Positions 3,408 through 58,300 of a stretch of 64,000 bases of DNA are shown here, one piece after another. The first letter of the stretch is position 1. Every line of letters starts with the position of its first letter. The DNA is taken from assembly GCA_017302015.1 (NCBI GenBank), contig JAFLEE010000014.1, forward strand, positions 5,097 through 69,096. Reading direction: 5' to 3'. The position numbers and the translations under genes are program-made. This DNA is from Spirochaetota bacterium (GTDB taxonomy: Bacteria; Spirochaetota; UBA12135; COTS27; JAFLEE01). The notes beneath the pieces were generated by a model. The model saw only the letters and a program-made list of their open reading frames with translations. It did no database searches and was not told the origin of the DNA.

Positions 3408-5516
3408 ATGTTGGCCCTGTCCCGCCATTCGATGCTTCTGCTCCCCATCCTGTTCGGCGCCACGCTGGCCCTCTCGGCGGGCCCCGGGGGAAAAGCCAAC
3501 GTGCTCATCCCCATGGATAAGATCGAAGGCGTGGTGAAGGTCAAAGGCGTCGCCACGCCTGCCGAAGCCTTTACCGTGCAACTCGCCGAGACCCGAAACA
3601 ACCCCGTGGAGGGCGACGGCGCCGTATCGATCCAGTTCACCCACACGGTCGTCAAAGGGCCGGGCGATTATGTTCGAATGGAAGTCTCCATCCCCCGCGG
3701 CGCGCTCGATCTCACCAAGGGCGCGGCCTATCTTCATTTCAAGGCGCCGAAACTCCCCGTCGGTGGTTCCTACTATTTGCTCATGGAGAGCCCCGGGGCC
3801 AATGCGGTATTGCCCCTGAGCAATTTCCGGGAAACCTTGAACGGCTTCCGCGCCATCCCCCTTTCCCGGGGGCTCCTGGAAACCTTGAAAGGCACGGCCG
3901 CGCGCATCGATCCATCCACCTTGACCCGGATCTTCCTGGGCATGGCCAATATCCCCGTCTCCGATGGGGGCGTGGTCGAAATCGACGCGGTTACCGATCG
4001 GCCCCTGGCTCCCTTGCTTTTTGCGGAAGTCGCCAGCGCGGCGCCCACGATCGAGCCCGCAGCCCCTTCCAAGCCCGAGAGCCCGTTGCGCATCGTGACG
4101 AATACCCCGTACGTGCACCTGAAAGATTACCGGGCGTATGAAGATTGGGAAACCAAGGGCGTCCGGTCTTATCCCGCCCCCGCGGGGGCGCCCATGGCCC
4201 AAGGGGTCCAGGCTGTCTTTCGCGCCGGGGGGAAATCCTACGACATTCCCCTCTACTCGGCGCCGGTGTACGCCGGAGAGGCCTGCCACGGGTCCATCGA
4301 CTCGACGGTGGAGGGGGAAGTGGAAATCCAGGTGGATGGGGAACTTCCCGCCGCCGTGAAGGTGCGCCCCCTTTCCAAGGGCATCGCCGCCATGGTGAAG
4401 GGAAAGTCCATCCGATTCAAGATCCCCGGCCCCGGGAAGTACAGCATCGAATTGGATGAGCGCCTTGAGCGGGCCGTGCACCTGTTCGTCAACCCGCTGG
4501 AGAAGAATCCGCCCCTGCCCGATACGCCCGGCGTCGTCTATTTCGGCCCCGGCTACCACGACCAGGTCGGAATGATCAACCTCACCAACGGCCAGACGCT
4601 CTACGTCGCCGGCGGGGCCTACCTCTACCGCGCCCGCGTCCAAGTGAAAGACGCCGACCGGGTCACCGTGCGCGGGCGTGGCATCGTGGACACGGCGGGC
4701 CGCTGGAATAACTACCAGAAAGACCCGCTGACCACCCATTGCCTGGGGGCCCTGAACACGCGCCACCTCACGGTGGAAGGCCTCACCTTCCTCGACGCCG
4801 AAACCTTCTGCACGGTTTATCGGCGTTCTTCCGACCTGCGCATCCGCAACGTCAAGATCATCGCCAAGGATGGCAACACCGACCAGAACGACCTGGTGGG
4901 TTGCCAGCGGGTGCACGTCTCCGACGTGTTCTACCGGGGGTATGACGACGGCATTGTCGTCAAGGTGGCCATCGAGGCCCGAGACCTGCACAGCTGCGAG
5001 ATCCTGGCCGAGAACTCGGTGATCTGGACCGACAAGGCCCACGCCCTCACGGTGGGCACCGAGGTGCTCAACAACGTCTACCACGTGGTGTTCACCAACA
5101 TCGACGTGCTGCACGTGCGGGAGCCCCGGGATAACTCGCGGGCGCTCGCCATCCACGTGGGCGATAACGGGACGGTCCACGACGTCATCTTCGACGACAT
5201 CCGCATCGAGAACCTCTCGCCCCCCTTCGCAAATAACGGCATCGACCTCATCCAGGTGGAGGTGAAACCCAACGTCTATTCCAAGACGGGCTTGCCCGGC
5301 CATGTGCGAAATATCCTGTTCCGGAATATCCAATTGGGCTCGGCGCCGTTCTTCCCCCGGACCGATCTCAAGGGCTTCGACGCCGATCATACGGTCGAGG
5401 GCATCACGTTCGAAAACATCCGCATTCTGGGGACGAACGTGATGGACTTAAACGGCCTCCAGGTGATGACCAACCAATGGGTGCGGGGGATCACGGTGCG
5501 AAACAAAGCCCCGTGA
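3408..5516 (+). CDS. secreted right-handed beta-helix (pectin-lyase fold) glycoside hydrolase, GH28-like
   Basis: Signal peptide MLALSRHSMLLLPILFGATLALSAG from ATG 3408, with AGGAG 8 nt upstream. The C-terminal half carries beta-helix motifs GNTDQNDLVGCQ and GYDDGIVVKV (GH28 NTDGID / GDDC[IV]AIK-like), and NVYHVVFTNIDVLHV. Confidence 0.75.
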   Translation: MLALSRHSMLLLPILFGATLALSAGPGGKANVLIPMDKIEGVVKVKGVATPAEAFTVQLAETRNNPVEGDGAVSIQFTHTVVKGPGDYVRMEVSIPRGALDLTKGAAYLHFKAPKLPVGGSYYLLMESPGANAVLPLSNFRETLNGFRAIPLSRGLLETLKGTAARIDPSTLTRIFLGMANIPVSDGGVVEIDAVTDRPLAPLLFAEVASAAPTIEPAAPSKPESPLRIVTNTPYVHLKDYRAYEDWETKGVRSYPAPAGAPMAQGVQAVFRAGGKSYDIPLYSAPVYAGEACHGSIDSTVEGEVEIQVDGELPAAVKVRPLSKGIAAMVKGKSIRFKIPGPGKYSIELDERLERAVHLFVNPLEKNPPLPDTPGVVYFGPGYHDQVGMINLTNGQTLYVAGGAYLYRARVQVKDADRVTVRGRGIVDTAGRWNNYQKDPLTTHCLGALNTRHLTVEGLTFLDAETFCTVYRRSSDLRIRNVKIIAKDGNTDQNDLVGCQRVHVSDVFYRGYDDGIVVKVAIEARDLHSCEILAENSVIWTDKAHALTVGTEVLNNVYHVVFTNIDVLHVREPRDNSRALAIHVGDNGTVHDVIFDDIRIENLSPPFANNGIDLIQVEVKPNVYSKTGLPGHVRNILFRNIQLGSAPFFPRTDLKGFDADHTVEGITFENIRILGTNVMDLNGLQVMTNQWVRGITVRNKAP

Positions 5517-6634
5517 AGCGCGCCCGGGGTCGTCCCCCCAAGCGGCGCCCCAGACCCAAACGGGGCGCGCTCCCTCCCGCCCCTCCTTCGGAAAGGGCGC
5601 TGCAGGTTCGCCATTACCTCGCGGGGGAAGCGCGCGCCGGTCGGCTCACGGCAGGGACCCCAATCCCCTCCGCCCGCGACCTCGCCCGAACCCTGGGGGT
5701 GAGCCTCAATACCGTCACCAAGGCCTTCGGCCTGCTGCGCCAGGATGGGGTGCTCGCCGGCGAGAAAGGCCGGGGCACCTACCTGGCGACCACCTTGACC
5801 CGCGGCACGGTGCTCTTGATCCACAACCGATTCCGGGAAGGGCTCGGCCCCTTGTCCCTGTTCACCTTGTCGCTGGACCGCTCGGTGGAGCTGCTCCTCG
5901 AGAAAGCGGGCTACCAAGTCGCCCTGTGCCCCGTGGCGGAGGATGGGTCCGAAATCCCGCGCATCGCCATCATGGACCGGCTCGCCACCGGGCGTTTCGA
6001 TTTCGCGGTGGACGTGGGCAGCGGCCGCTGGCACGGCGACTTTTCAAGGGCGGTCCAAAAGGCGGGCCTCGCGATGTACGCCATCCTTCCCCAGCTTGAA
6101 AATCCCCTCCACCGGGTCGTGGTGGGGTTTGATCTGGGCGATTTTCGTCGGAAGGCGCTCGAGGTTCTTGGGCCTCTCGGGGTTCGTCGCCCCCTTTGGC
6201 TCCACCGGGCATCCTGGGTCCCCGCGCCTTCCGGCGATCGTCCCCTGGGGAACAGCTCCGACGCGAAGATCATCCCGGTTGATGCTCCCCTGCCCATCGG
6301 CGGGGACCTGGATGGCGGGGCCGCGATGTTCGACAAGGCGCTGGATCGGGACGGCTCGATGGATGGGGCGGTGGTGGAGAACGACGTGTGGGCGGAGGTA
6401 CTCCAAACCCGGCTCCTGCACCGGGGGCTCAAGATCCCCCTGGTGGTGATGGCCAATCGGGCGCTGCCCCGGCATTTCGCCCTGCCGGTGACCCGCATCT
6501 TCGCGCCCCGCGAGAACCTCGGAGACCTGCTTTCGACCTGGTGGGCGGCCCCCACGGCGGGAAACCCCAAGGCGTGCCGCATCGATTTGCCATTCAGCGC
6601 CGAACCGATGCCCGGCGTGGTTCCCGTGGGGTGA
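5477..6634 (+). CDS. GntR-type winged-HTH fused to a LacI/PBP-like ligand-binding domain (transcriptional regulator); alternative GTG start at 5513
   Basis: HTH IPSARDLARTLGVSLNTVTKAFGLLRQDGVLAGEKGRGTYL, then a PBP-like domain. A basic RGRP-rich N-terminus, KRARGRPPKRRPRPKRG. GTG 5513 overlaps the upstream stop (GTGA). Confidence 0.7.
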   Translation: MGAGDHGAKQSPVKRARGRPPKRRPRPKRGALPPAPPSERALQVRHYLAGEARAGRLTAGTPIPSARDLARTLGVSLNTVTKAFGLLRQDGVLAGEKGRGTYLATTLTRGTVLLIHNRFREGLGPLSLFTLSLDRSVELLLEKAGYQVALCPVAEDGSEIPRIAIMDRLATGRFDFAVDVGSGRWHGDFSRAVQKAGLAMYAILPQLENPLHRVVVGFDLGDFRRKALEVLGPLGVRRPLWLHRASWVPAPSGDRPLGNSSDAKIIPVDAPLPIGGDLDGGAAMFDKALDRDGSMDGAVVENDVWAEVLQTRLLHRGLKIPLVVMANRALPRHFALPVTRIFAPRENLGDLLSTWWAAPTAGNPKACRIDLPFSAEPMPGVVPVG

Positions 6635-6769: not shown

Positions 6770-8100
6770 TGATACATAAGAAACCCCGGCGCGAATCCTG
6801 GCTTCAGGTAACGTCAAATTTCTTTCGCACATTCACGACCACCCCTGTCAGCCTTAAGCAGCATTCATCACGGGCCTCCGGTAGATTTTGAGATATCGGT
6901 GGGTGCCCCATTTGGTCGAGGAAACGAACCGTAGACGGGCTGCGACCAACATGAGCGCCGAGCAGCCATCAGGGAAGGCGCCTACCACACGCGTGCGACG
7001 ACGTACCTCACGGTTAATCCGCTCCATCGGGTTGTGGGTCCGAATTTTCGTCCAATGACTGCGTGGGAAGCGCATGAAAGTGATTGTCTCCTCAATGCCG
7101 GATTCGATTAACGCGGCGGCCTGCTGGAGTTTCATCTTTCTAAGTTTCTTCACCACGAGGCGGGCTTTGGCAAGGGCGGCACTGCGGTCTTCCTGGGCAT
7201 GGATGGCTTTGAGCATTGCGGCCACTTCTCGGCCGTGCTTGCGAGGGGTCACCCCGAAGACATTTCGGTAGAAATGCACGACACAACGTTGCCATTTCGC
7301 TTGGGGGAAGATCTCCCCGAGCGATTCTACGAACCCCAGGGCCTTGTCCGAAATCACTAGCTTCACCTTCTGCAACCCTCGCTCTTTTAGGTGGCGGAGA
7401 AAACGGAGCCAACTATCCTTATCTTCCTTGCTTCCCTCGCAAACCCCCAGAATTTCCCGGTGACCATCAAGATTCACCCCGAAGGCGACGAGGACACTCA
7501 CGTTCTTATAATGGCCGCCCCAGCTGCGGTTGAGCCAAATGCCGTCCAAGTAGAGGTAGACGTATTCGGGCGCTAGTTTCTGGTTGTGCCAGGCATCGAT
7601 CTTTTCATAAAGCTGTTTATTGAGGTTACTGATCGTTCCAGGGGAAACCTTGGAACCCCAGAGTGCTTCTGTTATGTTTTCGACGCGTCTTACCGATACC
7701 CCTGCCAGATACATCTCCATGAGGGCTTCCTCGACCGAGATCATTTTGCGCCGATACCGTTCGATGATGGCACTTTCAAAGGGTAGGCTCCGGAGCTTGG
7801 GCATCTTTAGGGTCACGCTCCCCAGCGGGGTTTCAAGTTTCCGTGCGTAGTGCCCGGCACGGGTGGTTTTCCGCCCCGGGCTCCTTTCGTAGCGTGAAGC
7901 CTGTGCAATCTGCTGGGCCTCGCCATCCAGGAGCTGGTTGAGGGTGTCCGCGACCGTGCCCTCGACCAGCGTTTTGAGATGTTCCTCCACCTGGTGCCTA
8001 TCAATTTTTATTGCATTTTCGACCAAACTTGCCGATGATTTCATTGGTCCCTCCGTTGCGGGTTTGTTGGCAATTCATTCTCGCCAACAGGGGGGCCTTT
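6770..8100 (-). mobile_element. IS256-family insertion sequence (ends approximate)
   Basis: Intact IS256-type transposase gene with about 60-80 bp flanks. Terminal inverted repeats not confidently resolved by eye (weak ggcg[ac]gaat match at both ends). Confidence 0.65.
6854..8044 (-). CDS. IS256-family (Mutator-type) transposase
   Basis: 396-aa ORF with hallmark IS256 segments: YERSPGRKTTRAGHYARKLETPLGSVTLKMPKLR, MISVEEALMEMYLAGVSVRRVENITEALWG, YVYLYLDGIWLN, VLVAFGVNLDGHREILGV, WLRFLRHLKERGLQKVKLVISDKALGFVESL, KWQRCVVHFYRNVF, RTHNPMERINREVRRRTRVVGAFP. Confidence 0.95.
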   Translation of the reverse strand: MKSSASLVENAIKIDRHQVEEHLKTLVEGTVADTLNQLLDGEAQQIAQASRYERSPGRKTTRAGHYARKLETPLGSVTLKMPKLRSLPFESAIIERYRRKMISVEEALMEMYLAGVSVRRVENITEALWGSKVSPGTISNLNKQLYEKIDAWHNQKLAPEYVYLYLDGIWLNRSWGGHYKNVSVLVAFGVNLDGHREILGVCEGSKEDKDSWLRFLRHLKERGLQKVKLVISDKALGFVESLGEIFPQAKWQRCVVHFYRNVFGVTPRKHGREVAAMLKAIHAQEDRSAALAKARLVVKKLRKMKLQQAAALIESGIEETITFMRFPRSHWTKIRTHNPMERINREVRRRTRVVGAFPDGCSALMLVAARLRFVSSTKWGTHRYLKIYRRPVMNAA

Positions 8101-31913: not shown

Positions 31914-32549
31914 ATGTGGAATGATCTCGACCCGCCTTGGAAAGATTGCTTCGATTTGGCATGGCTTTCATTCAAAAAGGGCTCCATCCCCATCGGCGCG
32001 GTCATTGTCAACGAAACGAAAACACGCGTCGCCGGAGGAAGGAGCCAACAATACGAAAAAGCGGGCTCTCCCGGGGAAATCGTCAACCATAAATTGTCCC
32101 ACGCGGAATTGAACGCCTTGCTGAAGGTGGGCAAAGAAGAGCATCCGGACGTTCGGCATTACGCCCTCTACTCCACCATGGAACCCTGCCCGTTGTGCTT
32201 CTGCGCAATCGCGATGTCCGGGATCAGGCGAATCGAATACGCCGCCAGGGACGGTTACGCGGGGGGCGTCGAGATCAACCGCCTTAGCGGATACATCGCC
32301 GCGAAGAAGATCGAAGTTTCCGGTCCATACGGCGAAATGGAGGCGATCCAATTGACGATCCAAAGCGTCTTCGAATATCGCCGGGGGCCCTCGGAAAAAT
32401 TATTGTCGAAATGGAGCGAGGATTCGAAGGCGGCCGTCGACCTCGCGAAAACGTTGTTTCACGAAGGGACACTCCTCCGCTTCGCGGAAAAAGACCTGGA
32501 AATGTCGGTCGTCTATGATTTTCTTTGCGGGAACCTCAAGAGGCGCTGA
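31914..32549 (+). CDS. CDA-fold nucleoside deaminase (TadA / guanine-deaminase-like) with a roughly 50-aa C-terminal extension
   Basis: 211-aa ORF with IPIGAVIV, HAELNAL (HAE zinc motif) and MEPCPLCFCAI (PCxxC), then RIEYAARD. Lower GC than flanks; 440 bp of upstream non-coding DNA. Confidence 0.75.
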   Translation: MWNDLDPPWKDCFDLAWLSFKKGSIPIGAVIVNETKTRVAGGRSQQYEKAGSPGEIVNHKLSHAELNALLKVGKEEHPDVRHYALYSTMEPCPLCFCAIAMSGIRRIEYAARDGYAGGVEINRLSGYIAAKKIEVSGPYGEMEAIQLTIQSVFEYRRGPSEKLLSKWSEDSKAAVDLAKTLFHEGTLLRFAEKDLEMSVVYDFLCGNLKRR

Positions 32550-32559
32550 TTCCCTCCCC

Positions 32560-33801
32560 TCATTCCTCCTTCTCGAGGTTCTTCCCGAACCTGCCCCAAC
32601 CCTCCTCCGGCTCGGGGCACGGCTTGATCATGGCGAGGTATTCCGCCAGATGACGCCGATGCTCGGCCAGGATCCCGGCGTAGGCCGTCTCCGAAGCGAG
32701 GTCACGGGATTCGTGGGCATCCTTCGCGAGATCATAGAGGGCAACCCCCCGCCGCTGGTGCACCGACTTGTGCGTCGCGGTGCGCACCACGGTCATGACC
32801 TCGTGGATGAGGCATTCGGTCACGTTCCAGGGGCGCCAGGCCACGGGGGGGCCATGGAGGATGGGCCGGAGACTTCGGGCATAATTCATGTCAGGCATGG
32901 CGGGCGCCCCGAAGAGGTCCAGGATGGTGGCGGCGAGATCGACCCCGGAGACGAGATGATCGGAGGTGGAACCCGGAGCGATGCCGGGGCCGACGATGAA
33001 GAGGGGCACCCGGATGGCTTCCTCCCAGGGCACCCCCTTGGTGTAATGATTGTGCTCGCCGTTCATCTGCCCGTGGTCGGAGGAGAAGATCAGGTAGGTG
33101 TTTTCGCGGTGGGGGGATTGGCGAACCGCCCGGACCACCCGACCCACCTCCCGGTCCACCATCTCCACCATCCGGTCGTAACTGTAGCGATAATAGCCGA
33201 GATGTTCCGGACCCAGCGGCATCGGGAGGGAAGGATCATAGACCGCGGGCATCGGCGGAATTTGCCCGGCCACGTCCGCGGCGGCCTCGTATTTGGCGGG
33301 GTTTCGGGCATGGGACCAGAAGCAGATATCATGGGGATTGAGGAGCCCCACGTTCAGGAAGAACGGCCCGGCGGCGGGGCTTCGATCCTGGAGGTAGGCC
33401 TCGGCCACCCTGGCCACTTGGGCATCGGCCAATTCCCCCACCCCGAACCCCGGGTGGAGCAGGCGGAAACTGCGCTGGACCTCCCGGTGCGGTACATGCC
33501 ATTTTCCGGCATAAACGCACTCGATCCCCCGGCCGCCCAGCCATTGGCCGAGATCGGGGATGTCCTTCTGGAGCGGATAGCCGTTGTCGAGGACCCCCGT
33601 CTCCCGGGACATGCGCCCGGTGTACCAGGAGGTCCGGGCGGGGCAACACACGGGGTTCGTGGAAAATGAGGATGTAAACCGAATGCCCTGAGCCCGCAGC
33701 GCATCGAGGTGCGGGGTGCGGACCCGGGGATTGCCCTCGCATTGGAGGGCCCCGTGGTATAGCTGGTCCACATGGATGAAGACGAGATTGGGGGTGCCCA
33801 C
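32560..33801 (-). CDS. Cys-type sulfatase (formylglycine motif CxPxR), no N-terminal signal peptide
   Basis: GTG at 33801, 5 nt after the upstream stop. It opens directly with the conserved VGTPNLVFIHVDQL, then CCPARTSWYTGR and the SSDHGQ metal site. The in-frame upstream extension to 34044 overlaps the upstream gene and is not signal-like. Confidence 0.8.
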   Translation of the reverse strand: MGTPNLVFIHVDQLYHGALQCEGNPRVRTPHLDALRAQGIRFTSSFSTNPVCCPARTSWYTGRMSRETGVLDNGYPLQKDIPDLGQWLGGRGIECVYAGKWHVPHREVQRSFRLLHPGFGVGELADAQVARVAEAYLQDRSPAAGPFFLNVGLLNPHDICFWSHARNPAKYEAAADVAGQIPPMPAVYDPSLPMPLGPEHLGYYRYSYDRMVEMVDREVGRVVRAVRQSPHRENTYLIFSSDHGQMNGEHNHYTKGVPWEEAIRVPLFIVGPGIAPGSTSDHLVSGVDLAATILDLFGAPAMPDMNYARSLRPILHGPPVAWRPWNVTECLIHEVMTVVRTATHKSVHQRRGVALYDLAKDAHESRDLASETAYAGILAEHRRHLAEYLAMIKPCPEPEEGWGRFGKNLEKEE

Positions 33802-33805
33802 GGGC

Positions 33806-34663
33806 CTAGGCCTCGACCTTCTGCAGCAGGTAGGACCGCATGGCATGGGTGATGAAAAGGGGCCGGCCGGCCGCGTCGAACCAGTAATGGATGGGATGGG
33901 TGGCGTCGCCCACCTGATAATAGCCCCGCAGGCTCCCGGCGCCCCACGGGATTTCTCCCGCATCCCCGAGGCGCTGGTTCTGCCCGAGGTTTCCATTTTC
34001 GTCGAGGAAGGTGAAGCTTCCCTCGGGCTTCCGCCCCCTGGCAAGGAGGACTAAGAGGTCCGCCAGGCACCAGAGCGGCCCGGGGCACGGGAGCACGTCG
34101 GAAAAACCCATGGCTCCGGAAATGGTTTTTAATAGAGCCACCTCCCCTTCCAGCCGGATCTCCTGGACCCTCCGCAGGGTTTCACCGGCTCCCAGCGCGC
34201 TGCTCGCAGTATCGGTCCAACCGGAGAGGCCCGCCGATCCCCCGGCGATGACGAGTTCGATGCGATGGCCCCCTTGCCGGAATTCCAGGAGAGACCGCCG
34301 CTCCCCGCCCCGAAGGCCGAGGCGCAGGGTGCCGGTGGGAACGGTGCGCAGCATTTGCTGCGGATTCCTCGAGGGAACGGCCCGCACCTGCATGAACTCG
34401 AGCCCCCACTCGCCCTCCAGGATCCCCTTCCCGGGGAGCGAAGAGGCTTCTTGGACGCGGTCCGAAATAGGTCGCAGGGAAAAATGCCCTGGCGCCCCCG
34501 CCAGGACGAGCCCCTCGGTGGCCGGTCTAGATTTCTTTTTTGTGTCGGCAGCCTTCAGGGACAAGAGAAGGGCCGCCGCGCCCATCCCGCCAATGGCCAC
34601 GAAACGTCGCCGCGTCATGGGAGCCGACGCACCGGAAGGAGAAGGATTCTCAATCTTTTCCAC
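33806..34663 (-). CDS. Tat-signal hypothetical protein (start 34663 or 34618)
   Basis: Twin-arginine motif MTRRRFVAIGGMGAAALLLSLKAA. About 270-aa mature region without a domain I recognise. Stop TAG 5 nt before the sulfatase GTG. Confidence 0.7.
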   Translation of the reverse strand: MEKIENPSPSGASAPMTRRRFVAIGGMGAAALLLSLKAADTKKKSRPATEGLVLAGAPGHFSLRPISDRVQEASSLPGKGILEGEWGLEFMQVRAVPSRNPQQMLRTVPTGTLRLGLRGGERRSLLEFRQGGHRIELVIAGGSAGLSGWTDTASSALGAGETLRRVQEIRLEGEVALLKTISGAMGFSDVLPCPGPLWCLADLLVLLARGRKPEGSFTFLDENGNLGQNQRLGDAGEIPWGAGSLRGYYQVGDATHPIHYWFDAAGRPLFITHAMRSYLLQKVEA

Positions 34664-34975
34664 GGTTCGACGATATCCTGCCCACCCCCATTATTCAACT
34701 CTTTGGATCGGCTGCGACCGATCGAAGCGCCCAGAGCCCGATTACTATAAAAGCGGCTTCGAGCGTGGCTCGGGGCGCCCATTCTTCCCCGGCACCCCCG
34801 GGGCAAAGTGGATCTTCGCGCGTCGGTTTGACGGCGATGGCCGGACGACGAGCGGGAATGCGGGGGCGGGAGAACGGATTTCACCCCTCGGCAGAATTGC
34901 CGGTGGCAAAGACCAGATCCATTCCCGGGCTCACCCGATCCCGAGGATCCCGCGGGCCCGGCGACGGAGGAGGCC

Positions 34976-35866
34976 CTAGCGACCGGTGAAGCGCGGGAGC
35001 ACCGTGCCCGAGGCGGAAAGGGCGGACGCGCCTTCCCGATTTCCCTCCCGGAAGGCCGTCGGCGTCCTCCCCGTCTGCTTCTTGAATTGGGTGGCGAAAT
35101 AGCGCCCGTCCCCGAACCCGCACCGCTGCGCGATCTCGGAGACCGGGAGTTCGCCGTGGGAGAGCAGGAAACTCGCGGCCTCGAAGCGGCGGGCGAGCAG
35201 GTAATGGTGGGGCGTGGCGCCGAGTTCCGCCTTGAAGCGGCGGATGACGTAGGTCGACGTGGTGCCGACGAGCTGGCCCAAGCGGCCCAAGGGGATCGTC
35301 TCGTGGAAACGCGCGTCGAGGAAATCTTTGAGGCGTTGGACGAGGGGAGAATGGCGCACGAAAAGGGTGCCCGCGCCCTCGGCGAGGGTGTGGAGCACGC
35401 GGTGGACGAGATGGGCGAGATCCTTCCCCTGGCGCGGAAAAGGCGCCCGGGGATCGGCCGCCGAAAGCCCCTCGGCGAGGGCGTGGGCGCTGCGGAAGAG
35501 CGGCAGCAGCGTGGCGCCGGCGGGAACGTGGAAGATCCCCTCGAGGCGGAACAAAGAGAGGAGGAGTTCGATGCTCTCTCGTTCAAAATAGAGATAGAAC
35601 TTACTGGCGAAGGCGGGCGGACGCGCCTCGTAGCGGAAGGTGGAAAAGCGCGGGAGGAGGAAGACGTCGCCCGGCCGGAGTTCGAAGGGCATTCGATCGA
35701 CCACGAGGTCGGCGCTCCCGGAGACGAGGCATTCGATGGAGGTGCGGTAGGGACGGTCCCGCTGAAAAAAATGGGCCTGGGCGGGGCTGAAACCCACCGC
35801 GGTGGGCAGGAAGGGAACGCCCCGCCAGATCTCGGGGATGCGGTAGACGATTTCATTTTGTTTCAT
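34976..35866 (-). CDS. AraC family transcriptional regulator
   Basis: 296-aa ORF. HTH ...IPLGRLGQLVGTTSTYVIRRFKAELGATPHHYLLARRFEAASFLL...VSEIAQRCGFGDGRYFATQFKKQTGRTPTAFRE. Confidence 0.85.
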   Translation of the reverse strand: MKQNEIVYRIPEIWRGVPFLPTAVGFSPAQAHFFQRDRPYRTSIECLVSGSADLVVDRMPFELRPGDVFLLPRFSTFRYEARPPAFASKFYLYFERESIELLLSLFRLEGIFHVPAGATLLPLFRSAHALAEGLSAADPRAPFPRQGKDLAHLVHRVLHTLAEGAGTLFVRHSPLVQRLKDFLDARFHETIPLGRLGQLVGTTSTYVIRRFKAELGATPHHYLLARRFEAASFLLSHGELPVSEIAQRCGFGDGRYFATQFKKQTGRTPTAFREGNREGASALSASGTVLPRFTGR

Positions 35867-47008: not shown

Positions 47009-47228
47009 GGCGGATGGGGGACGATCGGCCTTTGGCGACCTGAGGAACTGCGCTCCCACGGGCTTTCGCCCCTGGGTGCGTTTCGGACCCGGTTCGTTCA
47101 TTTTTCCATCCCCGGGATCGCCGGGGCCCCGCGATGGGCAAATTCCGGGTCCATTTGCTATACTCATATATAGTAAAGACTTGAAAGGGCGCCTTCGCGA
47201 ACCGGGCGCCTTTTGGGACCCGCCCCGT

Positions 47229-48800
47229 ATGACAACCGGAAAAATCCTCATCGCCGCGGCCCTGCTGGCCTCGGCCGCCTGGCCTCAGCGGGAGCCCATC
47301 GCCCCCTTCGAACTTCCCCAGACCGCCCCGCGGGTTTCGCCCATCGACGACCTGGTCTTCGACAAACTCGCCGCTTCGGGGAAGAAGCCCAATTACCTCG
47401 TCAGCGACGAGGTCTATGCGCGGCGGGTCGCCTTCGACCTCACCGGCACCCTGCCCACCGCCGCCGAAATGCGGGCTTTCCTCGCCGACCGGTCCACGAA
47501 CAAACGTGCCCGCCTGGTGGACCGCCTGCTGGCATCGGATCCTTACGCCTCCTACTTCACCATGAAATGGTGCGATCTCCTGCGGGTGAAGAGCGAGTTC
47601 CCCATCAACCTCTGGCCCAACGCGGTGCAGGCCTACCAGCGCTTCATCTACGCCTCCATCAAGACCAACCTCCCCTTCGACCGTTTCAGCCGCGCGCTCT
47701 TGACCACGAGCGGCGGCAATTTCCTCGACCCCGCGGCCAATTTCTACCGGGCCGTCCAGAAAAAGGAGCCCTATAATATCGCCCAAGCGGTGGCCCTCAC
47801 CTTCATGGGCGCCCGTTTCGAGGCGTGGCCGGCGGCGAAGCAAGCGGGCCTGGCCGCGTTCTTCTCCAAGGTGGCCTATAAATCCACCCTCGAATGGAAG
47901 GAGGAGATCGTCTTCTTCGATCCCGACCTGCCCGCGTTCACCAACGAACGGGGGCAGCCCATCGATGCGGTCTTCCCGGACGGTGCCCGGGCCGCCCTCG
48001 ATCCCGCCGTCGATCCCCGCAAGACCTTCGCCGACTGGCTCCTGCGGCCCGAGAACCCATATTTCGGGAAGGCCATCGCCAACCGGGTCTGGTACTGGAT
48101 GATGGGCCGGGGAATCGTCCACGAACCCGATGATTTCCGGGACGGCAACCCGCCGCAGAACGCCGCGCTCTTGGCGTGGCTCGAGGGCGCCCTCGCCTCC
48201 AACGGCTACGACCTCAAAGCGCTCATGCGCCTCATCGCGGCCTCGGGCACCTACCAGCAATCCTCCATCCCCCTCGCGGTGTCCTGGAGCAACGATCTGA
48301 ACTTCTCCCGCTACCTGCCCCGGCGCCTCGAGGCCGAGGTGCTCATCGACGCGATCTGCCAACTCACCGGCACCTCCGAATCCTACTCGAGCCCCATCCC
48401 CGAGCCCTTCACCTTCATCCCCCCTTCCAGCCGCTCGGTGGACTTGGCCGACGGCAGCATCAATAGCGCCTTCACCGAGATGTTCGGGCGGCCCGCGCGC
48501 GATACCGGCACCGAGGCGGAGCGCAATAACACGCCCAACGCCGAGCAGAAGATCCACCTCCTCAACTCGAGCCATATCCTCGACAAGTTCAAGCAGGCCC
48601 GCAATTTCCGCCGCGCCATCGCCCAGGCCAAGGACCCCGAGAAATCCGTCGACGAGGTCTACCTCTGGGTGCTCTCCCGCGCCCCCACCGAGGCGGAACG
48701 CCAGGCGGCCCTCGCCTATTCCAAAGTGAACCGGGCCGAGCCGTGGATCGACCTGGCCTGGTCGCTGGTGAACGCCAATGAGTTCCAGTTCAAGCATTAG
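47229..48800 (+). CDS. DUF1549 / DUF1553 (PSCyt2/PSD1-type) protein, PVC-group specific
   Basis: Signal peptide MTTGKILIAAALLASAAW. ...RRVAFDLTGTLPTAAEMRAFLAD...KRARLVDRLLASDPYASYFTMKWCDLLRVKSE... (DUF1549) and a C-terminal DUF1553-like ...ARDTGTEAERNNTPNAEQKIHLLNSSHI... Confidence 0.8.
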   Translation: MTTGKILIAAALLASAAWPQREPIAPFELPQTAPRVSPIDDLVFDKLAASGKKPNYLVSDEVYARRVAFDLTGTLPTAAEMRAFLADRSTNKRARLVDRLLASDPYASYFTMKWCDLLRVKSEFPINLWPNAVQAYQRFIYASIKTNLPFDRFSRALLTTSGGNFLDPAANFYRAVQKKEPYNIAQAVALTFMGARFEAWPAAKQAGLAAFFSKVAYKSTLEWKEEIVFFDPDLPAFTNERGQPIDAVFPDGARAALDPAVDPRKTFADWLLRPENPYFGKAIANRVWYWMMGRGIVHEPDDFRDGNPPQNAALLAWLEGALASNGYDLKALMRLIAASGTYQQSSIPLAVSWSNDLNFSRYLPRRLEAEVLIDAICQLTGTSESYSSPIPEPFTFIPPSSRSVDLADGSINSAFTEMFGRPARDTGTEAERNNTPNAEQKIHLLNSSHILDKFKQARNFRRAIAQAKDPEKSVDEVYLWVLSRAPTEAERQAALAYSKVNRAEPWIDLAWSLVNANEFQFKH

Positions 48801-48914
48801 CCCAAGCCCGATGGCGCCCCGCAAGGGCCCGGACATCGCAACGCGCGCCACGCCGCCAAGCGCCCGGCGCGCAGGATGGCGGAACCTCGATCGAATCGCG
48901 ACCAGACGACCTGA

Positions 48915-50261
48915 ATGGGAGGCCCCATGAAGCCACGAAACATCCTCCGCGACGCCGACGCCCTCTCGCGCCGGGAAATCCTCCGGCTCATGGCCATCGG
49001 GGCGCTCACCGTTTCGGCCCTGCCCGCCCGGGCCGAAAAGACCCCCTCGGGCAAGGGCACCGCCCGCTCCGTCATCCAGATCTGGCTCTCGGGCGGCCCG
49101 ACGCACCTGGACACCTTCGACCCGAAGCCCGAGGCGGGGACCGAATACATGGGCCCGCTGCGGGCGATCCCCACCAATGTCGACGGGGTGCAGATCGGCG
49201 AACTCCTGCCCCTCCTCGCCAAGCAGGCCGACAAGTACAGCTTGCTGCGGGGGATGACTCACGGCAATAACGGCCACGAGACCGCGGCCTACATGGTCCA
49301 GACCGGTTGGACGCCCGGGGGAACCCTCGTGCACCCCTGCCTGAGCGCGGTGCTCACCCAGCGCCTCATCGCGGCGGGAAGTTATAAGGGGCTCATCCCC
49401 CCCTATCTCGTCCTCACCCAACCCCAGGGCCGTTTCTCCGAAGCCGGCTTCCTCGGGCAGCGGTGCAAGCCCTTCGCCACCGGCGGCGACCCGTCCCAGG
49501 CCCGCTTCACCGTGGAGGGGGTGGTCTCCAAGGACCTCACCCCCGAGCGCCAGGAGGCGCGCAAGACGCTCTTGGGCCAGGTGGACGCATTGGCCCAAGC
49601 CGGCGCGACGATGCCCGAACTCGCCCCCGCGGCCGCCAGCGAGCGCGAGGCCTGGGAACTCATCCTCGGTCCGGCGGGCAAGGTCTTCGACCTCGGCCAG
49701 GAAGCCAAGGAACTCCGCGACAAGTACGGCATGAACCCCTTCGGCCAATCGTGCCTCGCCGCGCGGCGCCTGGTGGAGAGCGGCGTGCCCTATATCACCA
49801 TCAATTTCGGCGGCTGGGACCACCACAAGCAGATCTTCCCGGCCCTGCGCCAGAAATTGCCCCAACTCGATCGGGGCGTGGCCTCCCTCCTGGAAGACCT
49901 CGCCTCCCGCGGGCTCCTCGAGAGCACGGTGGTGTGGGTGGGCGGCGAGTTCGGGCGCACGCCCAAGGTGCAGCCCGAGGCGCCATGGAACGGCGGACGC
50001 CACCATTTCGGCCAGGCGTTCAGCCATCTGGTGGCGGGCGGCGGCTTTCGCGGGGGCTCCGTCATCGGCGCCACCGACAAGACGGGCGACACGGTGAAGG
50101 ACCGCCCCATCTACCCCTGGGACCTCATCGGGAGCATCTATGAGCGCCTGGGGCTCAGCCCAGAAGCCACGGTGCCCCACCCTTCGGGCTATGCCGTGCG
50201 CGTGCTGCCGCCGATGGAGGCGAAGACGCCCACCGGGGGCCGGCTCAAGGAATTGGTATGA
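48915..50261 (+). CDS. DUF1501 family (alkaline-phosphatase-like superfamily) protein with Tat signal (alternative start 48927)
   Basis: SRREILRLMAIGALTVSALPARA twin-arginine signal. ...VIQIWLSGGPTHLDTFDPKPEAG..., ...INFGGWDHH..., ...VWVGGEFGRTPK... typical of DUF1501. Confidence 0.8.
   Translation: MGGPMKPRNILRDADALSRREILRLMAIGALTVSALPARAEKTPSGKGTARSVIQIWLSGGPTHLDTFDPKPEAGTEYMGPLRAIPTNVDGVQIGELLPLLAKQADKYSLLRGMTHGNNGHETAAYMVQTGWTPGGTLVHPCLSAVLTQRLIAAGSYKGLIPPYLVLTQPQGRFSEAGFLGQRCKPFATGGDPSQARFTVEGVVSKDLTPERQEARKTLLGQVDALAQAGATMPELAPAAASEREAWELILGPAGKVFDLGQEAKELRDKYGMNPFGQSCLAARRLVESGVPYITINFGGWDHHKQIFPALRQKLPQLDRGVASLLEDLASRGLLESTVVWVGGEFGRTPKVQPEAPWNGGRHHFGQAFSHLVAGGGFRGGSVIGATDKTGDTVKDRPIYPWDLIGSIYERLGLSPEATVPHPSGYAVRVLPPMEAKTPTGGRLKELV

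Positions 50262-53581: not shown

Positions 53582-58300
<4,719 letters not shown>

Follow-up and report, generated by a model that had tools for sequence, protein, structure and literature searches.

A signal-less sulfatase and its conserved neighbour: a candidate pair for Tat hitchhiker export

The locus described here raises the question of whether a sulfatase that has no export signal of its own could leave the cytoplasm on the signal of the protein encoded next to it. The window, meaning the whole stretch of 64,000 nucleotides that was analysed, contains such a sulfatase gene, here called S, directly downstream of a gene, here called X, whose product begins with a Tat-like sequence. The two genes and the active-site motifs of S are these:

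33806..34618, minus strand: gene X, a 270-aa partner protein of an unannotated family, read from the ORF and its translation (ATG 34618, stop TAG 33808-33806)
32560..33801, minus strand: S, a signal-less Cys-type S1 sulfatase of 413 aa (GTG start 33801, PF00884 and SGSH_C)
33613..33648, minus strand: formylglycine motif CCPARTSWYTGR, S residues 52-63 from the translation, with Cys52 the predicted FGly precursor
33067..33084, minus strand: metal-binding motif SSDHGQ, S residues 240-245 from the translation, with D242, H243 and G244 invariant

By the PF00884 cut-off (156.4 bits against 25, E 1.3e-45) S is an S1 formylglycine-dependent sulfatase with the whole catalytic domain matched, residues 4-299 lying on profile positions 1-301. 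Its motif reads C52-C-P-A-R56-TSWYTGR63, which is of the C/S-x-P-x-R type followed by xxxxTG(R), and C52, P54 and R56 are invariant in the alignment of paired sulfatases, as are the metal and catalytic columns D12, Q13, K100, H102, H157, D242, H243 and K255. The full-length PF00884 match, the C-x-P-x-R motif and the conserved metal and catalytic residues are shared with other S1 sulfatases, although S is a short protein. The nearest structures by sequence are 3b5q (YidJ-like) and 5g2t (BT1596, a GAG 2-O-sulfatase), and similarity to any solved sulfatase is distant (E about 3e-31).

An earlier note on this DNA described S as having no signal peptide, and this is borne out: no upstream in-frame start supplies one, and about 115 of the 120 best homologues begin at the same position, 2-8 residues before PNIVFIHV, so the missing signal is the norm for the clade and not a start-codon artefact. 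The gene call in a 99 % identical twin contig is also 413 aa. The possibility of a signal peptide hidden in the in-frame extension upstream (to TTG 34044) was rejected, as this extension is hydrophilic, has a maximum 12-aa Kyte-Doolittle mean of 0.91 with no hydrophobic stretch, and overlaps gene X in another frame.

Protein X begins MTRRRFVAIGG..., MTRRRFVAIGGMGAAALLLSLKAADTKKK... There is an alternative GTG start at 34663, which would add 15 residues, and comparison with the twin contig fits neither start better. A word-index search with the protein returned only itself, an exhaustive phmmer search returned 17 representatives, and profile matches span many phyla. Between the window and the twin contig, 23 of 30 substitutions in gene X are synonymous and 7 non-synonymous, with 20 of the 30 at codon position 3. 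That X might be an orphan or not a gene at all is ruled out by the phmmer relatives, the profile matches beside sulfatases and the mostly synonymous substitutions. Searches of Pfam, NCBIfam and PDB sequences with 31 members of the family gave zero matches, in agreement with the earlier description of X as a protein without a recognisable domain. Three parts of X can be distinguished:

34547..34618, minus strand: Tat-like signal, residues 1-24, MTRRRFVAIGGMGAAALLLSLKAA, with T-R-R-x-F and a 15-aa Gly/Ala/Leu hydrophobic region
34490..34546, minus strand: basic disordered linker, residues 25-43, DTKKKSRPATEG..., with pLDDT <50 at residues 31-42
33809..34489, minus strand: core domain, residues 44-270, a LolA-like open beta-barrel with a conserved C-terminal HPxHYWxDxxGRPLF motif

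The signal of X had been called a textbook twin-arginine signal, which stands only in part. By eye the fit is good: T2-R-R-R-F-V-A8 is of the S/T-R-R-x-F-L-K type, and the hydrophobic region VAIGGMGAAALLLSL is moderately hydrophobic (maximum 12-aa Kyte-Doolittle mean 2.02). However, the scores lie below both cut-offs, at 13.5 bits for PF10518 (cut-off 22.7) and 9.2 for TIGR01409 (cut-off 16.7). Cleavage could fall at LKA|A or at KAA|D, with no clear AxA, and the AF2 model has a low-confidence helix at residues 3-20. Among the orthologues, R-R-x-F-L/M/I is present in about 35, and there are X signals above the cut-offs in L088 (PF10518 25.6, TIGR01409 17.3) and L012 (TIGR01409 22.4).

A Tat-specific feature that helps to avoid Sec is the presence of basic residues behind the hydrophobic region, and the basic linker of X may be such an element. 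Lys/Arg-rich stretches are found at this position in orthologues as well. The AlphaFold model of the core is an unclosed antiparallel beta-barrel with a helical plug, which is a LolA/LolB-like fold. By sequence X does not belong to a LolA-type family (31 members searched), its identity to LolA/LolB-like barrels and to the DUF184x barrel 6ntr being 7-13 % with no sequence relationship. Unlike LolA and LolB, X has no link to lipoprotein sorting, and its genomic partner is always a sulfatase.

The genes nearly abut, as had been noted before, although the gap between the X stop and the S GTG is 4 nt and not 5:

33802..33814, minus strand: coupling junction, with an SD-like GAGG (33814-33811) inside the end of X, the stop TAG (33808-33806) and the spacer (33805-33802)

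Orthologous X and S genes are separated by gaps of about 1-30 nt or have 4-nt overlaps. A promoter and terminator scan of 32300-35100 found nothing above chance.

Whether the two genes belong together was examined in 80 loci of the S clade, gathered from genomes with the sulfatase alignment. An X homologue lies directly beside S, on the same strand and in either gene order, in 76 of them. These cover more than 10 phyla, with paired taxa including Planctomycetota, Latescibacterota, Armatimonadota, Lentisphaerae/Victivallales, Kiritimatiellales, Verrucomicrobiota, Acidobacteria, Gemmatimonadetes, Sumerlaeota and Binatia, so that the pairing, on whose conservation the earlier proposal of a partnership depended, is kept in related genomes. 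Of the four unpaired loci, two are at contig ends and not assessable, and in the other two X has been precisely deleted, each time from a genome that retains a second X-S pair. There is no third gene conserved near the pair across clades. Heparinase II/III or sugar-acid enzymes are encoded in some of the neighbourhoods. The distance matrices of S and X are strongly correlated (Mantel r = 0.953; 0 of 2000 permutations as high), with X the faster-evolving of the two (mean distance 0.70 vs 0.48 for S).

In one locus, L077, the two are naturally fused in a 727-aa ORF, where a lipoprotein signal precedes S and a Lys-rich linker joins S to X, the X part having no signal of its own. This sole fusion is a clean in-frame join without the X signal, and the idea that the window might hold a single frameshifted X-S gene is therefore unsupported; nearly every locus has X and S as two distinct genes. 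The suggestion that X is a dedicated partner subunit is strongly supported by the correlation, by the fusion and by the fact that no other neighbour is conserved. With the adjacency in 76 of 80 loci, the lack of a third gene, the varying placement of the signal and the loci of reversed topology described below, X is almost certainly a dedicated partner of this sulfatase.

The position of the export signal varies among the 76 pairs. A Tat-like signal is on X only in 35, including the window pair, where X is the one signal-bearing partner, as in a hitchhiker pair. In 8 pairs the Tat signal is on S only and X is signal-less, which answers the earlier question of whether homologues of S elsewhere carry their own signals: these 8 do, and the roughly 115 of the 120 best homologues that start as S does are signal-less. 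Examples of signals borne by S are SRRRFLK (PF10518 25.8 bits) and ARREFLK (TIGR01409 18.9), and that of L072 is of the ordinary cleavable Tat type (AFRAFA|Q). Both partners have signals in one pair (L075), neither does in 30 (about 40 %), and the remaining two are the L077 fusion and a truncated locus (L058). In L088 there is a Sec-type signal on S, with the Tat signal retained on X (25.6 bits). A rule that the two are never both signal-bearing is ruled out by L075, so that one signal per pair is not absolute. Since the 8 pairs with the signal on S only fall into a single clade of the sulfatase tree, independent relocations of the signal must be few, with roughly 4-5 state changes in all.

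An independent route led to two signal-less X genes; in each case the next gene encodes a Tat-signal sulfatase, which begins with MTRRAFIQSGALGAAG or ISRRSLLGTGAAG. A further look-up gave a Tat-signal X gene followed by a signal-less sulfatase. That a signal-less X would have a Tat-signal sulfatase next door had been predicted beforehand, and this held in both look-ups.

The presence of 30 pairs with no signal on either partner means that the core function of X is not export. It also makes the earlier statement that sulfatases normally act outside the cytoplasm too strong, given that about 40 % of pairs are signal-less and that there are cytoplasmic predictions in the Kiritimatiellales, strains of which have hundreds of sulfatases, about a quarter of them predicted to be cytoplasmic (PMC6388578).

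Because the pair occurs in more than 10 phyla with the signal on either partner, X and S most likely act, and are transported, as a single complex. It is thought probable, with appreciable doubt, that they make up a two-subunit sulfatase sharing one export signal and co-exported through Tat on that of X by hitchhiking. Catalysis would fall to S, a short S1 sulfatase that depends on formylglycine, and X would be a dedicated non-catalytic partner with a LolA-like beta-barrel, for which substrate capture, stabilisation and tethering are candidate roles. Judging from the 4-nt spacer and the SD-like GAGG inside the end of X, the genes would be co-transcribed and translationally coupled. S would then mature in the cytoplasm, where an unlinked maturase converts Cys52 to formylglycine, calcium binds and the protein folds. 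The co-inheritance of the genes and their natural fusion suggest that the barrel of X would bind the folded S, leaving the Tat-like signal and basic linker free, and the distribution of signals suggests that the Tat translocase would recognise T-R-R-R-F-V on X and move the whole complex across the membrane. The large GH-like proteins neighbouring the pair have Sec signals, and from this context the complex may, once outside the cytoplasm, desulfate glycan fragments that come from them.

There are other ways of reading the locus. That X might be a MelC1-type chaperone or escort with only a passing role, binding S in the cytoplasm, aiding its folding or maturation, taking it through Tat and then letting go, and in signal-less lineages being a cytoplasmic folding or maturation factor only, would account for the retention of X without any export signal in 30 of 76 pairs, for its faster evolution and for the two genomes in which X is deleted and S kept. 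The natural fusion, however, implies that permanent association is tolerated and selected, and signals on each partner in L088 and L075 fit joint periplasmic assembly or function and not a purely cytoplasmic step, so that such an escort is considered unlikely. Somewhat more doubtful is the proposal that the two genes are linked but their products work in separate compartments, X being exported alone through Tat, for example as a periplasmic substrate-binding protein, and S acting in the cytoplasm on imported sulfated sugars. In its favour, signal-less sulfatases are common and generally taken to be cytoplasmic (PMC6388578), both partners look cytoplasmic in 30 of 76 pairs, and an MFS transporter adjoins the pair in Tichowtungia. 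Against this, the reversed topology, with Tat on S and none on X, in 8 loci and the two look-ups would require the compartments to be swapped, while the fusion and the loci in which both partners are exported (L088, L075) put X and S together.

The N-terminus of X could also be an uncleaved membrane anchor that keeps X, and thereby S, at the cytoplasmic face of the membrane. Positive charges are more numerous behind the hydrophobic region than in front of it, which would favour an N-out, C-in orientation, and the lack of a clear AxA site and the sub-threshold Tat scores of the window X point the same way. This is nevertheless improbable, as the R-R-x-F-L/M consensus is found in about 35 X orthologues, several of which are above the curated Tat cut-offs, as basic residues in this position are the known Sec-avoidance feature, and as S in the reversed clade bears Tat signals of the ordinary cleavable kind, such as that of L072. 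Chance adjacency, or a purely local neighbourhood of unrelated genes, has nothing in its favour except the missing annotation of X; with pairing in 76 of 80 loci in more than 10 phyla, a fusion, an r of 0.95 and no other conserved neighbours, it scarcely merits consideration. For the window pair, co-export through Tat on the signal of X is the best-supported reading and is favoured with modest confidence.

Tat hitchhiker export is an established mode, known for HybOC and PaoABC (PMC4273604). Like X and S, HybO/HybC (E. coli hydrogenase-2) and PaoABC (an aldehyde oxidoreductase) are encoded by adjacent genes with the signal on the small subunit, and the signal-less larger catalytic subunit is proposed to be co-exported after cytoplasmic folding and assembly (PMC4273604). 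These are redox enzymes with complex cofactors, whereas S is a hydrolase whose sole cytoplasmic maturation is formylglycine formation, and in X-S, where export is predicted, the signal shifts between partners or is missing, depending on the lineage. Another parallel is the melC1-melC2 pair of Streptomyces, in which a small Tat-signal protein, encoded just upstream of a signal-less, non-redox-complex tyrosinase, escorts the enzyme out of the cell. MelC1 is a copper chaperone with a fold unrelated to that of X and is released after export, whereas X, a LolA-like barrel, persists in lineages that have no signal and is fused to the enzyme in L077. No published description of the X-S pair was found; the literature search found neither a published S1 sulfatase with an obligatory second subunit nor relevant work on sulfatase hitchhiker or twin-arginine export, or on formylglycine together with twin-arginine.

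The chances appear evenly balanced that X and the S clade represent an unrecognised, widespread class of two-subunit sulfatases, in which the LolA-like subunit is required, the signal is interchangeable and many 'cytoplasmic' sulfatases are periplasmic hitchhikers. If so, this would be the first hydrolase case of natural hitchhiker export with partner-swapped signals, and a sizeable share of the 'cytoplasmic' sulfatases of Planctomycetota, Verrucomicrobiota, Lentisphaerota and Armatimonadota would actually be periplasmic. The localisation of sulfatases in polysaccharide degraders is usually predicted protein by protein, and models of where sulfated glycans are desulfated would need revision if this clade is exported on a partner's signal. 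S1 sulfatases are also regarded as enzymes of one subunit; a LolA-like partner, if obligatory, would have consequences for heterologous expression and biochemical characterisation, since attempts to express the sulfatase by itself may fail. A signal that can move between partners would offer a natural experiment in the evolution of Tat hitchhiking with a non-redox cargo, and the unannotated X family gains a testable role, with Tichowtungia aerotolerans and Ruficoccus amylovorans as cultured hosts.

No FGE, anSME or tatABC genes are present in the window or among the recurrent Latescibacterota neighbours of the pair. The organism probably uses Tat, because a DUF1501 gene in the window (48915-50261) has an N-terminus beginning ...LSRREILRLMAIGALTV. 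Upstream of the pair is a regulatory gene:

34976..35866, minus strand: AraC-family regulator (PF12833, PF00165, PF02311)

It is possible that this regulator controls the X and S genes, and AraC-type genes also adjoin the pair in L001, L002 and L093.

The sulfatase gene lies directly 3' of the gene for X (J0L75_06030) in a metagenome-assembled genome labelled 'Spirochaetes bacterium', and the features concerned are as follows.

33806-34618, minus strand: X, 270 aa, with stop codon TAG at 33808-33806
33814-33811, minus strand: SD-like GAGG, within the final codons of X
32560-33801, minus strand: sulfatase, 413 aa, with start codon GTG at 33801

These ORFs agree with the layout described in the earlier note, except that the window sequence has 4 nt, not 5 nt, between the stop of X and GTG 33801. 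A 99 %-identical metagenome contig, for which genes were called independently, likewise has a 413 aa sulfatase product.

The sulfatase matches PF00884 from residue 4 (E 1.3e-45), with CCPARTSWYTGR at residues 52-63 and SSDHGQ at 240-245, and its usual metal-binding and catalytic residues are all invariant across its relatives. Every sequence criterion applied marks it as a true member of the S1 family, remote in sequence from every solved structure, the nearest being 3b5q and the 2-O-sulfatase 5g2t (E about 3e-31). It is indeed signal-less, as had been proposed: the extension of its frame up to TTG 34044 is hydrophilic and overlaps X, which is read in a different frame, and in about 115 of the 120 best homologues, drawn from many phyla, the protein begins 2-8 residues ahead of the PNIVFIHV strand, which together rule out a hidden upstream signal peptide. 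At another locus, L090 (916-1100), a signal-less sulfatase beside a Tat-bearing X has HPVSAP in place of NPVCCPAR, which suggests a Ser-type formylglycine motif in that protein (434 aa gene, only part translated).

X begins MTRRRFVAIGGMGAAALLLSLKAADTKKKSRP and, as the earlier note had it, has no recognisable domain, there being no match to any Pfam or NCBIfam profile. A word-index search returned only X itself, while exhaustive phmmer picked out 17 relatives among 1.8 billion cluster representatives, to which a profile search added more. X differs from its counterpart on the 99 % twin contig by 30 substitutions, 23 synonymous and 20 at third codon positions, from which it follows that it is translated and under purifying selection. 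Between the window (32560-34618) and this twin, L002 (5184-7242), there are 30 differences in the 813 nt of X and 9 in the 1242 nt of the sulfatase, of which 6 are non-synonymous; recombination is one possible cause of this uneven divergence. An AlphaFold2 model based on 31 family members (pLDDT 79, pTM 0.78) has an N-terminal helix of low confidence, which is the signal, a disordered basic linker, and a barrel that has about 12 strands and a single internal helix. As modelled, X resembles LolA in fold only.

Besides the twin, the nearest sulfatase homologue (53 % identity) is in another Spirochaetes-labelled genome, where an X homologue (32 % identity, MKRRDFITES...) ends 1 base before the sulfatase start. 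Look-ups centred on X found the same order, X then sulfatase, on Sedimentisphaerales and Pirellulales contigs. An alignment of four paired sulfatases was next used to search GTDB at one genome per species, and the X profile was run against every stop-to-stop ORF in the best 80 loci. In 76 of these 80 an X homologue directly adjoins the sulfatase on the same strand, immediately upstream or downstream, typically with a gap of a few to about 30 nt. Two of the four unpaired loci are at contig ends and two have lost X by precise deletion in Latescibacterota that keep a second pair. In the latter, L022 and L031 (~5306-5317, compared with L013, 5312-5996), only the first ~26 codons of X remain, the sulfatase is intact, as are the flanking coaD-like and lon genes, and a second, paralogous sulfatase-X pair is present. 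X evolves faster than the sulfatase, and the distance matrices of the two are correlated (r = 0.953; none of 2000 permutations as high). Comparison of neighbourhoods across the clade revealed no other conserved neighbour beyond close relatives. The pairing is thus conserved in related genomes, and with the co-inheritance, a fusion of the two proteins and the lack of any other conserved neighbour, it makes it close to certain that X is a partner dedicated to this clade of sulfatases, which the earlier note had raised as a possibility. The pair is also present in two cultured species, Tichowtungia aerotolerans, where X (MMATRRRFMEG...) and a signal-less sulfatase overlap by 4 nt, and Ruficoccus amylovorans, and experiments are therefore feasible.

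Placement of the export signal in 76 adjacent sulfatase-X pairs

R-R-x-F-L-type signal on X only: 35 loci; Planctomycetota, Lentisphaerae/Victivallales, Armatimonadota, Acidobacteria, Binatia, Verrucomicrobiota, Kiritimatiellales and the window lineage
Tat signal on sulfatase only, X opening at its core: 8 loci; TRRQLLK, SRREFLR, SRRRFLK, ARREFLK, TRRETL; Sumerlaeota, Chthonomonadales, Armatimonadia, Fimbriimonadaceae and one Planctomycetota
Signals on both: 1 locus, L075
Signal on neither: 30 loci; Latescibacterota, Gemmatimonadetes and one Deltaproteobacteria-labelled genome
Fusion of 727 aa: 1 locus, L077; lipoprotein signal, sulfatase, Lys-rich linker, X minus its own signal
Truncated, not scorable: 1 locus, L058

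Sulfatase homologues elsewhere can carry signals of their own, in the eight sulfatase-only loci and L075. The eight form one clade on the sulfatase tree, and pairs lacking any signal fall into at least two clades; because signal states cluster by clade, there were some 4-5 independent changes of state, not dozens. Outside the genome set, the sulfatase P0114 carries a Sec-type signal, and the X that comes after it has a strong Tat signal. Placement was also predicted beforehand and then checked on three of the X proteins that the exhaustive search had returned: beside two signal-less X proteins, the next gene encodes a Tat signal and sulfatase N-terminus (MTRRAFIQSGALGAAG...RRPNLLFINCDQ and ISRRSLLGTGAAG...PPNFLF), and downstream of the Tat-bearing X the sulfatase is signal-less. 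The L077 fusion (3884-6064, on a MAG contig labelled 'Bacteroides sp.') is a lipoprotein with lipobox FVSC, in which the Tat signal of X is gone and the Lys-rich linker retained.

Several signals of the pairs pass the curated PF10518 or TIGR01409 cut-offs. That of the window X is of the R-R-x-F-L type and is not the textbook example it had been called, scoring 13.5 against 22.7 bits (PF10518) and 9.2 against 16.7 (TIGR01409), and no clear cleavage site was seen in it. A basic stretch after the hydrophobic region is a known Sec-avoidance feature of Tat signals, and that of X fits this. In loci with the order sulfatase then X (e.g. L012, L018, L021, L025, L028, L032), a conserved G-R-L-P-L-L-(G/A/S)-A ends the hydrophobic region of the X signal; signal peptides are seldom so well conserved, which hints at a function besides targeting, for example in binding a chaperone or the partner.

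Since 30 of the 76 pairs carry no signal whatever, export is not the core job of X, which is instead something the sulfatase needs wherever that enzyme acts. In the 35 lineages with a signal on X only, the partners would end up in separate compartments if the sulfatase did not accompany X. Such separation is improbable: the reversed clade, the both-signal locus, the Sec-plus-Tat locus and the fusion would all, as predicted from their signals, put the two together, although a Kiritimatiellales genomic study counts signal-less sulfatases as cytoplasmic (PMC6388578). It is unlikely that X is a transient, MelC1-like escort of the sulfatase, and that it is a tether on the cytoplasmic membrane face is very doubtful. 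The simplest reading for this locus is that the folded, formylglycine-matured sulfatase would bind X in the cytoplasm and the complex would be exported through Tat using the signal of X. This co-export is supported, not proven, and we consider it only somewhat probable because the X signal is sub-threshold with no clear cleavage site, neither tat nor sulfatase maturase genes were seen within the 64-kb window, and export itself is inferred.

Hitchhiker export through Tat is established for HybOC and PaoABC (PMC4273604), and the sulfatase and X would work like such a pair. No paper tying sulfatases to hitchhiker export or an accessory subunit was found in the full-text literature; Tat hitchhiking of a sulfatase that apparently has two subunits, the partner belonging to an unannotated LolA-like family, would be new, again as a supported and not a proven proposal.

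Around the pair, 24298-47008 looks like a polysaccharide-utilisation region, with very large Sec-signal proteins (1370, 1205, 751 and 1283 aa) weakly matching GH42, GH5, GHL6 and CBM9, and at least 5 AraC-type regulators. At 47076-50261 (plus strand) lie a DUF1549/DUF1553 (PSCyt2/PSD1) gene and, after it, a DUF1501 gene with a product beginning ...LSRREILRLMAIGALTV (Tat-like). This signal and the large Sec-exported GH-like proteins are consistent with extracytoplasmic work on sulfated glycans. The DUF1549/DUF1553 and DUF1501 gene pair is typical for Planctomycetota and Verrucomicrobiota, so the 'Spirochaetes' label of the MAG may be unreliable. A Mutator-family transposase at 6854-8044 (minus strand; PF00872, E 4e-107), with third-position GC of 0.65 against ~0.8 in its neighbours, is probably an insertion sequence of recent arrival. 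At 53582-58300 (minus strand) is a 1572 aa hybrid histidine kinase with HisKA, HATPase_c, receiver and Hpt domains and a long unannotated N-terminal region.
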